Below are positions 11,415-12,810 of a stretch of 64,000 nucleotides of DNA, in pieces. Position numbers and translations under genes: made by a program. Origin of the DNA: a virus. The stretch covers positions 29,340 to 93,339 of the IMG/VR virus record IMGVR_UViG_3300001305_000002, one strand, 5' to 3'. The stretch's first letter is position 1. The number at the start of each line of letters is the position of its first letter. The notes below the pieces were generated by a model, which saw nothing but the letters and a program-made list of their open reading frames with translations, was not told the origin of the DNA and did no database searches.

Positions 11415-11750
11415 ATGAGCGACGCACAACTAGTCGCTGAAAAGATTATGGCTCTGGTGGACGAATATCCTTCAGAGCCATTTTCCTTTGAGCGCAAACA
11501 AGTAATAGAAAAATTACAAACCATACTTTTGAAATTTGCTGACATAGCTCAAGATGCTAAAGACTCCTTCTATCAAATTGGTTATGATGAAGGTAGGGAA
11601 CGAGCAGAGGAAGATAGTCAATCAGATATTCAAGAACTAGAAGATGAAATAGATGAACTCAGGCAAGAGTTGGGTGAGCTGAATAATAAGCTTGATCAGA
11701 CTTATCTAGAAGGATTTGAAGAAGGACAAAGTCAAGACAGAATGAGATGA
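11415..11750 (+). CDS. Acidic coiled-coil hypothetical protein
   Basis: YQIGYDEG...coiled coil...YLEGFEEG. Confidence 0.6.
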   Translation: MSDAQLVAEKIMALVDEYPSEPFSFERKQVIEKLQTILLKFADIAQDAKDSFYQIGYDEGRERAEEDSQSDIQELEDEIDELRQELGELNNKLDQTYLEGFEEGQSQDRMR

Positions 11751-12810
11751 GTTTAGGACAAAAATTATTTGTCTGAATACTTGTCCTATAGTTGTCTTGA
11801 CTTTGTCTTAAGAAAGGAGACAAATGCTTAAGTGGTATTATTATGTCCTACTGAGTGTCGTAACGTTGTCAGCTTTGTCTATGACATGGTGGTCGATGTT
11901 TGACTTAGGTGTCCAAACTTTGTCCGTACCTGTCCTAGTAGCTGTCCTAGCTTCTGTCATTTTTGACTTAGGTGGTGTCTATCTTATCCTTTTGTCTATT
12001 GATTACGCTAAGACAAGTGACTCTGGTTTTTGGACAGAATTAGGATCATATGCATTCCTTGCGACAAGCACTTATATTGTTGTTCAGCATGGTGTCCTTG
12101 ACAATTACCCTGTTGCTGGTGTTGTTATGTTCGCAGCAGCACCTATTGTACTAGGAATCATTCTTAAAGCTACTCTTAATTACCTTACTAGGCAGCAGCG
12201 TAGAGCTACTGGTAGAGTAACTGAGAAGCTTCCTAGTGTAGGATGGCTTACTTGGGTAAGGTTTATGCCGCAATCCTGGAAACTTATGAGTGTTGCTATG
12301 CAAGGACGACTTGTTAATGCTGCGGACAAGTTAGAAATTGTCCATGACAGGTATGGAATCTTCGGACAAGCTGAGACAGAACTTGTCCGAGTGTCTGCGA
12401 CACCTGAGACAGCCGTAGACAGGACAGAAAATAAAGACCTAGGACAACTTGAGACAAAGATTAATTCGTCTCAACAATTGTCTCAGCCTGTCCGACCTGC
12501 TTTGACAACTTCAGACAATGTATCCTTGCCTATGTGGTTACCCAATGAGCCTGACATGAAGTTGTCTACACTCGTTAGGACATGTCTGGACAACGGTGTC
12601 CTTGATTTAGAGACAATGTTCCGCTATGCTAAGGACATTAAAGGACAAGAAGTCAATAAATTGTCCTTGTCCAGGACACTGACACGTGAAAAGACAAAAG
12701 TGTCCTAAGTCAATAAGACAAAGTTAGGACACTTTTATGCTTGCTCTCGGATTATGTCTTACGTGCCTAGGAATGTATTTGCTTGCATTTACTTGTCTTA
12801 GTCACGACAA
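11723..12810. repeat. Dense array of short TGTC(C/T) / (A/G)GACA motifs in both orientations
   Basis: About 60 TGTC/GACA occurrences counted by hand in about 1.1 kb, versus roughly 8 expected from base composition. Confidence 0.8.
11824..12708 (+). CDS. Spd-like (DUF2637-type) multi-pass membrane protein with a small C-terminal helical domain
   Basis: Four N-terminal hydrophobic segments, then an LPSVGWLTWVRFMPQSWKL segment; lies upstream of the TraB-like gene; AAGGAG RBS. Confidence 0.6.
   Translation: MLKWYYYVLLSVVTLSALSMTWWSMFDLGVQTLSVPVLVAVLASVIFDLGGVYLILLSIDYAKTSDSGFWTELGSYAFLATSTYIVVQHGVLDNYPVAGVVMFAAAPIVLGIILKATLNYLTRQQRRATGRVTEKLPSVGWLTWVRFMPQSWKLMSVAMQGRLVNAADKLEIVHDRYGIFGQAETELVRVSATPETAVDRTENKDLGQLETKINSSQQLSQPVRPALTTSDNVSLPMWLPNEPDMKLSTLVRTCLDNGVLDLETMFRYAKDIKGQEVNKLSLSRTLTREKTKVS

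Follow-up and report, generated by a model that had tools for sequence, protein, structure and literature searches.

In a 64,000-nt stretch of viral DNA (hereafter the window; positions 29,340 to 93,339 of IMG/VR record IMGVR_UViG_3300001305_000002), the gene of an SpdB2-like membrane protein and its flanks carry a dense array of TGTC/GACA motifs that is genuine, under selection at the DNA level, shared across the family, and specific to each element. Indirect evidence strongly supports that this field is a selected, putative protein-binding array: it withstood codon-preserving controls, its sites were conserved at synonymous positions, it recurred in 14 relatives, it was phased at 10.6 bp, and its motif was replaced by other words in distant homologues.

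Exact counting gave 62 TGTC/GACA cores between positions 11725 and 12809, with 29 TGTC and 33 GACA. Elsewhere in the window these words occurred at 3.5 and 3.0 per kb respectively, leading to about 7 expected at the locus, and the rest of the 108,159-bp phage genome gave an expectation of 6.5. A preliminary description made from the letters alone had reported about 60 motifs against roughly 8 expected, and this observation was confirmed. The extended words TGTC[CT] (n = 26) and [AG]GACA (n = 24) each had a background of about 1.5 per kb. The k-mer count proposed as a check was performed without bias toward any word, and GACA was the most enriched 4-mer of the array; the observed versus expected numbers were 27 vs 1.0 for GGACA, 33 vs 2.0 for GACAA, and 11 vs 1.1 for GACAC. 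The base 3’ to GACA was A in 33 of the 62 sites and C in 11, and the site consensus was tTGTCYta, consisting of an invariant 4-bp core and weak flanks. When the 108,159-bp genome was scanned in 300-bp windows, no second TGTC/GACA cluster was found, the maximum being 8 per 300 bp compared to 18-23 in the array. Avoidance of TGTC/GACA outside the array was not found either (observed/expected 0.84-1.10, about 1.05). The phage contig is linear and estimated to be 80% complete.

The array consists of two arms separated by a site-free gap, with one site per 13-15 bp within the arms (Table 1). The 5’ arm takes in the 73-bp intergenic spacer, where the ribosome-binding site (RBS) lies, together with 26 bp at the end of the preceding ORF and codons 1-93 (TM1-TM3), and was found in the window's clade and not in Streptomyces BE phages. 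The 3’ arm, which is the one common to BE phages, MiniFlayer, and plasmids, covers the codons of a disordered linker (8.6 sites per 100 bp), those of the C-terminal domain (7.9 per 100 bp), and about 100 bp beyond the stop. By region, 49 sites were located in the coding sequence, where they occupied all three reading frames, 8 in the 100 bp upstream (6 of them in the 73-bp spacer), and 5 in the 100 bp past the stop. The earlier observations of motifs in both orientations from the upstream DNA through the gene and past the stop, and of an empty stretch at about 12110-12320, were thereby reproduced. The main polarity of the sites was opposite between the two arms. The gap probably reflects constraint on the encoded protein, and not a functional spacer, because sites partly fill it in the more distant relatives L008-L011.

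Table 1. Features of the array locus and its neighbourhood in the window (positions are those of the window).
Feature	Position	Strand	Remarks
5’ arm	11725..12103		25 cores (16 TGTC, 9 GACA on + strand)
RBS AAGGAG and start codon	RBS 11814-11819, start codon 11824-11826	+	Read from the sequence
SpdB2-like (DUF2637-type) membrane protein gene, P0001, 294 aa	11824..12708	+	phrog_10376, E 9e-39
Site-free gap	12104..12324		221 bp, GC 0.44; codes for TM4 and for the cytoplasmic segment of highest conservation (aa 94-167)
3’ arm	12325..12809		37 cores (13 TGTC, 24 GACA on + strand)
Codons of C-terminal three-helix (HTH-like) domain, aa 232-294, proposed array reader	12517..12705	+	
FtsK/HerA/TrwB-superfamily ATPase, N-terminal membrane part	13599..15595	+	phrog_24831, E 3.5e-56; phrog_1358 'FtsK/SpoIIIE-like', E 3.8e-8

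The spacing of the sites followed a helical period of 10.6 bp (intervals in the spacer of 12, 11, and 11 bp), which is the pattern that proteins lined up on duplex DNA would give. Phasing at 10.5-10.75 bp was obtained for the window and five closer relatives (p <= 0.01), and was not found in the most distant clade members, BE phages, MiniFlayer, or plasmids. Palindromic TGTC-N2-3-GACA units were present and made up a minority of the sites. One GACA core (11819-11822) is located between the RBS and the ATG, and occupancy of the array at the RBS would presumably influence expression of the gene itself. Scanning the locus for sigma-70 promoters and terminators returned consensus-level matches only, several of which were made by the motif itself.

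The coding sequence allowed the contribution of the protein to be separated from that of the DNA. Its 49 sites compared to 23.9±3.2 under within-gene synonymous-codon shuffles (maximum 35 in 5000), 9.4±2.7 when the protein was fixed and genome codon usage was applied (maximum 20), and 13.9±3.2 under codon-order shuffles (maximum 28). Loss of enrichment under codon-preserving shuffles had been named beforehand as a refutation, and the enrichment persisted; the excess also survived synonymous shuffles in every homologue. In a codon alignment of nine sequences, sites were kept more often than other 4-mers (63 vs 39% at 72% amino acid identity, and 47 vs 21% at 55%), and third codon positions were conserved at 86% in sites versus 63% outside, which answers the proposed check on synonymous-site conservation. 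However, out of 158 distinct site columns only 2 were common to all nine sequences. Since few columns are shared despite this retention, the density of sites is maintained through turnover. The codon-preserving controls and the synonymous conservation sustain the original view of a DNA-level signal and not a protein repeat.

Similar arrays were present in the relatives. GACA was the top 4-mer of the SpdB2-like gene in 14 of the 14 relatives checked, at 27-91% identity, and in a blind k-mer test DUF2637-type genes reached -log10 p values of 9-31, compared to a median of 3.4 and a 99th percentile of 12.5 for control ORFs. The word itself differed between elements. The window's clade used GGACA/AGACA, and BE phages used GTGACA with or without GGACA. 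The satellite MiniFlayer used TGCGA (24 vs 0.8 expected), whereas MindFlayer, its co-infecting helper, used GTGACA (24 vs 0.5) and had none of MiniFlayer's word. Five Streptomyces plasmids, whose proteins share the C-terminal ~100 aa only, carried CGCTCA at 7-29x, another plasmid carried CGGACC at 16x, and pRL2, with a phage-like C-terminal domain, carried GGACA at 6x. In BE phages, MiniFlayer, and plasmids the array was positioned in the 3’ half of the gene and past the stop, and not at the promoter. Across elements, the array word changes with the C-terminal domain of the protein, a correlation partly confounded by common descent, and no other gene travels with the array. The trait is not universal, because pIJ101 spdB showed no array. 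The signal in the DUF2637 gene of pFRL6 was excluded as an array; it is an 18-bp tandem in essentially one orientation and thus probably a protein repeat.

The membrane protein P0001 has the four-helix N-terminal membrane module of DUF2637/SpdB2-like proteins in its AF2 model, with TM helices at residues 4-32, 37-62, 69-92, and 97-129 (pLDDT 82-94), followed by a helix (141-169), a disordered segment (170-229), and a three-helix bundle (247-293). Its membership in DUF2637 (PF10935) is suggested by transitivity only. Nothing was obtained at E <= 1 when P0001 was compared to PF10935 by hmmscan, and a six-frame search gave 12.6 bits against a cut-off of 22.8 bits, whereas homologues at 40-45% identity and the Coruscant protein passed, with 26.5 bits for P0068 (43% identity to P0001, E 5e-69) and 26.2 bits for the Coruscant protein. 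Foldseek with the whole P0001 model gave no meaningful match, no match of P0001 to an initiator family was found, and megablast of the locus against phage records returned no match. SpdB2 of pSVH1 is an oligomeric pore former with four TM helices that binds peptidoglycan, TraB, and dsDNA, the latter reportedly without specificity, and it is needed for intramycelial spreading and dispensable for replication (PMC4447253). Actinophage homologues of SpdB2 have previously been suggested to aid the spread of phage DNA (PMC4447253).

Two candidate readers of the array had been put forward, the C-terminal domain of the encoded protein and a TraB winged helix-turn-helix (wHTH). We favour the former, because the domain is predicted as a confident three-helix bundle whose neighbours are mostly HTH folds and because the type of motif tracks the domain. 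When folded by itself it reached a pLDDT of 88.9 and a pTM of 0.72. The nearest solved folds were mostly HTH DNA-binding domains below significance (Foldseek E >= 0.76; Z <= 5.6), including the N-terminal domain of TerS G20C (Z 5.4), IstA, Mos1, Lrp, PadR, and MecI, and its structural neighbours in the atlas carried HTH_48, HTH_3/7, and HTH_22. The domain aligned with the BE phage, MiniFlayer, and pRL2 proteins, and a PDB profile search with it produced a chance-level row only. A small three-helix bundle is a common arrangement, and an invariant core of 4 bp with weak flanks is short for an HTH site. The TraB wHTH, on the other hand, was not supported as a reader; none was detectable in the FtsK-like protein, and arrays are kept in MiniFlayer, where the gene is missing, and in BE phages, where it is distant.

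The FtsK-like gene lies three genes downstream of the SpdB2-like gene throughout the window's clade, about 0.8 kb beyond the end of the array with other ORFs in between. In the window it is split over two frames (13599-14246 and 14255-15595), whereas in seven relatives it is a single ORF of 645-670 aa. Pfam gave weak TrwB/TraG-D_C matches only and detected neither wHTH nor Ftsk_gamma in the protein, a non-detection that is not proof of absence. There was no match to PDB sequences, an atlas query with its C-terminus was uninformative, and tblastn of the window's ORF against 50,697 phage records returned no match. MiniFlayer carries the array without an FtsK-like gene, and the sole candidate in BE phages is about 60 kb from the array (E about 0.002). 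The FtsK-like ATPase is therefore a possible partner of the SpdB2-like protein and not a constant one. Complex prediction with SpdB2-like residues 1-175 and the FtsK-like membrane part scored 0.00, which speaks neither for nor against binding. The locus belongs to a replication and nucleotide-metabolism module, with a clamp-loader subunit upstream and NT5C, RNR, or ThyX nearby. Pfam scans of 20 ORFs (window 369-19895) found no ParA, ParM, TubZ, or ParB; compared to a partition centromere, the phased repeats are present but no neighbouring partition NTPase or adaptor was detected in these scans. The product of the upstream gene was rejected as an array binder, being ferritin/Dps-like in BE phages and coiled-coil here, with no alignment between them.

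The best explanation, to which we give about an even chance, is that the field of ~1.1 kb is a cis-acting docking array written through the SpdB2-like gene and read by the protein's own C-terminal domain, which would keep the genome tethered at a membrane pore or a site of translocation. The reader would be the three-helix domain, held on a disordered tether of ~60 residues under a four-helix membrane anchor; its identity, the membrane tethering, and the downstream use are what we infer. Many low-specificity sites on a 10.6-bp repeat would allow an oligomeric membrane protein to coat one stretch of the genome, and the coated phage DNA would be held at the membrane and passed to a pore or translocation apparatus, which in this clade would be the FtsK-like ATPase. 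The purpose may be movement or positioning of phage DNA in the mycelial host. With the sites placed inside its own gene, a protein that enters the membrane during its synthesis could meet its own encoding genome first (cis capture), and the sites overlapping the RBS could feed back on its synthesis. Precedents for the docking array are the binding of DNA and TraB by pSVH1 SpdB2 (PMC4447253) and the binding of pIJ101 SpdA2 within its own gene (PMC4170104). What a membrane tether would do for a phage that appears to be lytic is a matter of conjecture.

Several known systems resemble this arrangement in part. Like clt of Streptomyces conjugative elements, the array has clustered short repeats, an element-specific word, and a tra/spd context, and it may be likened to clt in building, at the membrane, a multimeric complex of protein and DNA that handles dsDNA (PMC4447253, PMC3583192). 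However, a clt locus comprises 4-9 repeats, each 7-9 bp long, within 50-200 bp next to a tra gene or at its end, and its reader is the translocase wHTH, whereas these arrays have 40-60 sites of a 4-6-bp word over 0.5-1.1 kb inside an SpdB2-like gene, in both orientations and in 5-10 times more copies, with no constant translocase. SpdA2 of pIJ101 binds a palindrome (sps) inside its own gene, and sps resembles the array in being located within the gene of its binder (here a putative one), in shaping the encoded peptide, in being conserved across elements, and in belonging to the spd gene set (PMC4170104). In the present case, the array is in the coding sequence of a candidate binder named from the correlation of motif and domain. 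The sps palindrome is 12 bp long and occurs in 1-3 copies, and SpdA2 is small and soluble, unlike the 62 copies of a 4-6-bp word and a putative binder that is predicted to be membrane-anchored and of a different protein family. P0001 shares the four-TM architecture of pSVH1 SpdB2 and, by transitivity, homology to DUF2637 proteins, but its host is a large, apparently lytic phage, and the DNA binding of SpdB2 was reported as non-specific. Our search of the literature found no description of arrays within DUF2637 or SpdB2 genes.

Outside the spd genes, the repeats of ori-lambda are located inside gene O, among the linker codons of the very protein that binds them, and both ori-lambda and R1 parC/ParR assemble a higher-order nucleoprotein complex on helically phased repeats. 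The array may be compared to them in its phasing on the helical turn; they differ in that their repeats number four to ten and measure 11-19 bp, their binders are soluble, and their initiator or partition NTPase is known, whereas the array lacks an AT-rich unwinding element and a ParM/ParA/TubZ neighbour. In phi29, replicating phage DNA is anchored at the membrane by p16.7, itself a membrane protein whose C-terminal domain binds DNA. The SpdB2-like protein may be likened to it as a phage membrane protein with a putative C-terminal DNA-binding domain, but p16.7 binds DNA without a sequence-specific array and has no homology to the SpdB2-like protein.

Other explanations of the array were weighed against docking by the protein itself. 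We consider it unlikely that the array is a clt-like locus read by the FtsK/TraB-like translocase encoded 0.9 kb downstream, which would pump the genome across a membrane or septum. TraB pumps DNA on the 8-bp TRS repeats of plasmid clt. In known clt loci, TraB/TraA bind clustered short repeats, both direct and inverted (PMC3583192, PMC4447253). In pWTY27, the repeat TGACACC is similar to the BE-phage word GTGACAC, the opposite main polarity of the two arms recalls polar FtsK loading sites, and the membrane ATPase is in place throughout the window's clade. Against this stand the failure to detect Ftsk_gamma or wHTH in the ATPase, or any match to it among PDB sequences or by tblastn among the 50,697 phage records, the MiniFlayer array without such a gene and the remote, weak candidate of BE phages, a motif that follows the SpdB2-like C-terminal domain across elements, and the scale of the array, with 40-60 sites over 1 kb inside an spd gene. 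A replication origin of the lambda O/ori type, with iterons in the linker-coding part of the binder's gene and a phased complex recruiting the replisome at the membrane, is rather improbable. The module in which the gene lies, the phasing, and the placement of sites in linker codons, as in gene O, fit an origin. Moreover, satellites without a replicase keep the gene among their few shared non-structural genes (PMC10690885). However, plasmid homologues carry arrays although spdB2 is dispensable for pSVH1 replication (PMC4447253), and a satellite relying on the replication machinery of its helper has a word orthogonal to that of the helper. There is also no AT-rich unwinding element (the gap has 44% GC, and the lowest 40-mer of the array region has 27.5% GC versus 15% elsewhere in the window), the cumulative GC skew turns ~7 kb away, and 40-60 sites are far above the number in known origins.

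Six sites in the upstream spacer, with one between the RBS and ATG, would suit a purely autoregulatory operator field, in which the protein or another regulator represses the operon by coating the promoter, RBS, and gene, and unregulated plasmid spd/tra genes are toxic, following kil-kor logic (PMC4447253). We regard this as very unlikely, in that BE phages, MiniFlayer, and plasmids carry the array away from the promoter, and operators need a handful of sites, whereas 40-60 sites kept through turnover imply a structural role. A packaging or DNA-entry signal, either a pac-like terminase site or a T5-like first-step-transfer/injection-stop region near a terminal repeat, is highly improbable. In Peebs the array is found ~1.7 kb into the left terminal repeat of 11,072 bp, in MiniFlayer it is ~1.1 kb ahead of the right repeat, and the top fold neighbours include the HTH of a small terminase (Z 5.4); the 5’-nucleotidase neighbour may recall the T5 pre-early region. 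Yet unpackaged conjugative and linear plasmids have the same feature, the array does not adjoin the repeat boundary, and satellites encode their own terminase with the gene elsewhere. Hardly any weight is given to an RNA-level or host-factor feature, meaning UGUC/GACA folding of the mRNA or a decoy for a host regulator such as WhiA. Folding of the 961-nt transcript region gave z = -7.3 compared to dinucleotide shuffles, but strong folding is unavoidable wherever a word and its reverse complement fill a field, making the z-score an expected by-product, and a 10.6-bp period is a property of duplex DNA. GACAC is the WhiA site (PMC3781837) and is enriched about 10-fold, whereas GACA is followed by A three times as often as by C (33 and 11 of the 62 sites), and a conserved host factor cannot explain the unrelated words that MiniFlayer and plasmids use in the same architecture.

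A broader form of the docking array is more tentative, and we would call it possible though doubtful. SpdB2/DUF2637-type proteins in general would be sequence-specific membrane receptors for their own replicon, whether Streptomyces plasmid, lytic jumbo phage, or satellite, each reading a field of 0.3-1 kb in a private short word placed within its own gene and being loaded in cis during synthesis. Lytic actinophages with an FtsK-like pump might then pass naked genomes between hyphal compartments with no extracellular step, and the orthogonal words of helper and satellite might prevent mutual capture. If the docking reading is true, the specific DNA contact that has been missing for the most conserved “spread” protein among the mobile elements of actinomycetes would be found; since 2007, only non-specific DNA binding has been known for this protein. 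Plasmids would then share a DNA-handling device with a large soil-phage family and its satellites. The movement of phage DNA in the mycelium by phage SpdB2 homologues would become directly testable, with a predicted site and reader for each element and the helper/satellite pair as a natural specificity control. The array also illustrates clearly how a dense DNA code, regulatory or structural, can be laid over a coding sequence, and this overlaid code visibly shapes the choice of codons and amino acids, mostly in the disordered linker.

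Between window positions 11723 and 12810, 62 TGTC/GACA cores were counted versus approximately 6.5-7 expected, and nowhere else in the genome, a single linear contig of 108,159 bp with 41% GC that is approximately 80% complete (IMG/VR virus record), came near this density. The preliminary description had reported about 60 motifs against about 8 expected; the count and the strong excess were confirmed, with the expectation revised downward. In an unbiased test GACA ranked first among 4-mers by enrichment, and the extended consensus around the core was weak (tTGTCYta). The sites, in both orientations, occupied the tail of the upstream ORF, the spacer between the genes, every reading frame of the ORF for P0001, an SpdB2-like (DUF2637-type) membrane protein, and DNA beyond its stop; their presence in the spacer, through the gene, and past the stop agrees with the earlier placement. 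A motif-free gap, previously put at about 12110-12320, was likewise found.

Layout of the TGTC/GACA array and the ORF beneath it (window coordinates)
Feature	Position	Strand	Content
5' arm	11725-12103		25 sites, chiefly TGTC on the + strand
Site-free gap	12104-12324		no TGTC/GACA
3' arm	12325-12809		37 sites, chiefly GACA on the + strand
ORF beneath the array (P0001)	11824-12708	+	294 aa; phrog_10376 match, E 9e-39

The array was surrounded by phage genes (polynucleotide kinase-phosphatase, NADAR, class II ribonucleotide reductase, and a clamp-loader subunit). Homologues of P0001 were found at 26-29% identity in 91 Streptomyces cluster-BE jumbo phages (Stanwilliamsviridae), where they are annotated 'membrane protein' or 'DUF2637 domain-containing protein', and 72 metagenomic homologues were 40-91% identical, several of them on contigs of 129-138 kb. 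Since P0001 itself fell below the Pfam threshold for PF10935 (22.8 bits) while P0068, a homologue 43% identical to it, and the Coruscant protein passed (26.5 and 26.2 bits), the label 'Spd-like' is valid by transitivity.

The array signal acts at the DNA level, as had been proposed. The P0001 CDS contained 49 sites, versus 23.9±3.2 (maximum 35 in 5000 shuffles) when synonymous codons were shuffled within the gene, 9.4±2.7 when the protein was kept and codons were drawn from genome usage, and 13.9±3.2 when codon order was shuffled. Codon choice and amino-acid choice were thus both skewed in favour of the word, as the excess over all three shuffles indicated. When nine members of the window clade were aligned by codon, sites were kept in preference to other 4-mers at each level of divergence (e.g., 63 versus 39%, 47 versus 21%). 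The synonymous-site check suggested in the preliminary description gave a concordant result, as third codon positions with an unchanged amino acid were 86% identical inside sites versus 63% outside. Each of the nine genes retained 41-52 sites; 158 distinct site columns were occupied, only two of them in 9/9 genes. The alignment thus shows single sites under purifying selection together with turnover that is compensated, the signature of selection for a dense site field.

In 14/14 relatives examined (one IMG/VR locus, eight metagenomic loci, and the phages Coruscant, Mandalore, Peebs, Samisti12, and MindFlayer), GACA ranked first among the 4-mers of the homologous gene, and the array count exceeded the maximum of 1000 synonymous shuffles in each relative put to this test. 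In BE phages the array was confined to the 3' half of the gene and approximately 100 bp past the stop, and the word was longer, (C)GTGACA with or without GGACA. The homologue in the satellite MiniFlayer, gp19, is 28% identical to gp32 of its helper MindFlayer (E 6e-22). The gp19 gene had no GACA excess and carried 24 TGCGA, with both orientations represented, versus 0.8 expected, a count well beyond that of shuffles, whereas MindFlayer had 24 GTGACA versus 0.5 expected, with TGCGA at background. Two elements replicating in the same cell therefore keep orthogonal words, and the pair offers a built-in specificity control for an array that is strongly selected, family-wide, and directly testable. 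When all ORFs of 200 aa or more in 22 loci were scored blindly for their best k-mer, DUF2637-type genes reached 9-31 in phages and up to 30 in plasmids, versus a median of 3.4 for controls (99th percentile, 12.5); the top-scoring controls were one-orientation protein repeats.

Among Streptomyces plasmids, CGCTCA(C) was enriched 7-29-fold in the DUF2637 genes of five, whose proteins were alike only in the C-terminal ~100 residues, and CGGACC was enriched 16-fold in that of another. The pRL2 gene was enriched 6-fold for GGACA, and its C-terminal domain resembles the phage one. The pFRL6 gene (L017 4927-7317) holds an 18-bp tandem repeat with much CGGCCCG, nearly always in a single orientation; it is probably a Pro/Gly-rich protein repeat rather than a DNA array. 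As pIJ101 spdB also had no array, the trait is common but not universal. The five CGCTCA plasmids, linear or circular (L016, L023, L024, L026, and L027), have a common module consisting of a WhiB-family gene, small ORFs, the long DUF2637 gene with its array, two small ORFs, a 700-900-aa ATP-binding protein, and a small 'TraB', with ParM in two of the five.

Same-orientation site pairs peaked at spacings of 10-12, 21, 32-33, 42-45, 54-55, and 63-65 bp, while opposite-orientation pairs, both convergent and divergent, peaked about half a turn out of phase, and TGTC-N2-3-GACA units were frequent. Against a jitter null, a 10.5-10.75-bp period was significant (p <= 0.01) in the window and five closer relatives, but not in the most distant clade members, BE phages, MiniFlayer, or plasmids. 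Phasing is thus a refinement of a sub-clade, whereas the array itself is the general trait.

In the AlphaFold model of P0001, aa 4-129 form four membrane helices and 141-169 a conserved cytoplasmic helix; residues 170-229 are disordered, and the C-terminal residues 247-293 make up a three-helix bundle, which reached pLDDT 88.9 when folded alone. The nearest solved or predicted neighbours of the bundle, none statistically secure, were mostly HTH DNA-binding domains (small-terminase N-terminal domain, IstA and Mos1 transposase HTHs, Lrp/PadR/MecI, Pfam HTH_48, HTH_3/7, and HTH_22). The 3' arm overlay the codons of the disordered tether (8.6 sites per 100 bp) and the C-terminal domain (7.9), the linker being in effect writable space for the DNA word, and the gap coincided with the most conserved protein segment. 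Both this domain and the TraB wHTH had been suggested as readers. We lean towards P0001's own C-terminal domain over the translocase as the putative reader, because the word co-varied with that domain type and no other gene travelled with the array across the elements compared. The gene upstream differed between clades. The TraB wHTH fared less well: no gamma/wHTH domain was detectable in the FtsK-like protein, whose gene lay three genes downstream in the window clade, approximately 60 kb away and barely related in BE phages, and was absent from MiniFlayer. A clt read by this FtsK-like pump is accordingly unlikely; the array would work like clt/TRS, yet differs from clt in position, probable reader, and size.

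The SpdB2 protein of pSVH1 has four TM segments, oligomerises, and forms pores; it binds dsDNA, peptidoglycan, and TraB, and intramycelial spreading requires it (PMC4447253). By our proposal, many P0001 copies would coat the array via tethered C-terminal domains, weak single sites gaining specificity by number and phasing, and the coated array would hold the genome at a membrane pore or a site of translocation. Having its sites within its own gene may help the protein to load in cis while transcription, translation, and membrane insertion are coupled, and those that cover the RBS could provide feedback. A pure operator is improbable. The fixed genome might be handed to the FtsK-like pump for passage between hyphal compartments, or replication or packaging might simply be positioned at the membrane. 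pIJ101 SpdA2 binds a palindrome inside its own gene (PMC4170104); the array would work like sps/SpdA2 but differs in palindrome, copy number, and protein family, and it belongs to neither the clt nor the sps class. No paper on such arrays in SpdB2/DUF2637 genes turned up in a literature search that did not cover Vogelmann 2011, the key publication on clt.

The array had neither the partner NTPase of centromeres nor the unwinding element and initiator of replication origins, and a lambda-O-like origin is slightly less likely than a pump-read clt. A packaging or DNA-entry signal, with which the position of the Peebs array 1.7 kb inside an 11,072-bp terminal repeat is consistent, is very improbable. 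Least probable are an RNA structure and a host-factor decoy: the region folds with z = -7.3, but any array made of a word and its complement would be expected to fold in this way, and the WhiA site, GACAC (PMC3781837), is a minority variant in the array.

The 40-mers with the lowest GC content in the window (15-17.5%) were at 44981-45230, a candidate unwinding region or origin approximately 33 kb away from the array. Directly 3' of the SpdB2-like gene, 8/8 clade relatives had a 5'(3')-deoxyribonucleotidase gene (PF06941, ~190 aa) that was absent from the window (12709-12864), which had a 50-aa ORF (12737-12889) instead and five extra motif copies past the stop, versus 0-1 downstream sites in relatives. 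The FtsK-like gene, a single uninterrupted ORF of 645-670 aa without internal stop in 7/7 relatives fetched (L005-L011), was split in the window over two frames (13599-14246 and 14255-15595); since the second reads on upstream of 14255 and matches relatives, the frame change lies before ~14200. The seven relatives require no frameshift for the full-length product. In Samisti12 (L014 5068-6789), an HNH/endonuclease VII ORF (5193-5945), which may be a homing-endonuclease insertion, splits the SpdB2-like gene near its 5' end into a 42-aa N-terminal ORF and an 858-bp remainder; many BE-phage proteins align only from residue 20. The Peebs terminal repeat (L028/L029) matched exactly end to end (1-11072 and 121976-133047) and carries an Lsr2-like gene and two ParB-like-nuclease-domain genes. 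Except for one HNH gene, all Peebs genes from 1 to ~18 kb point towards the left end, so that the SpdB2-like gene sits in a leftward operon running into the repeat.
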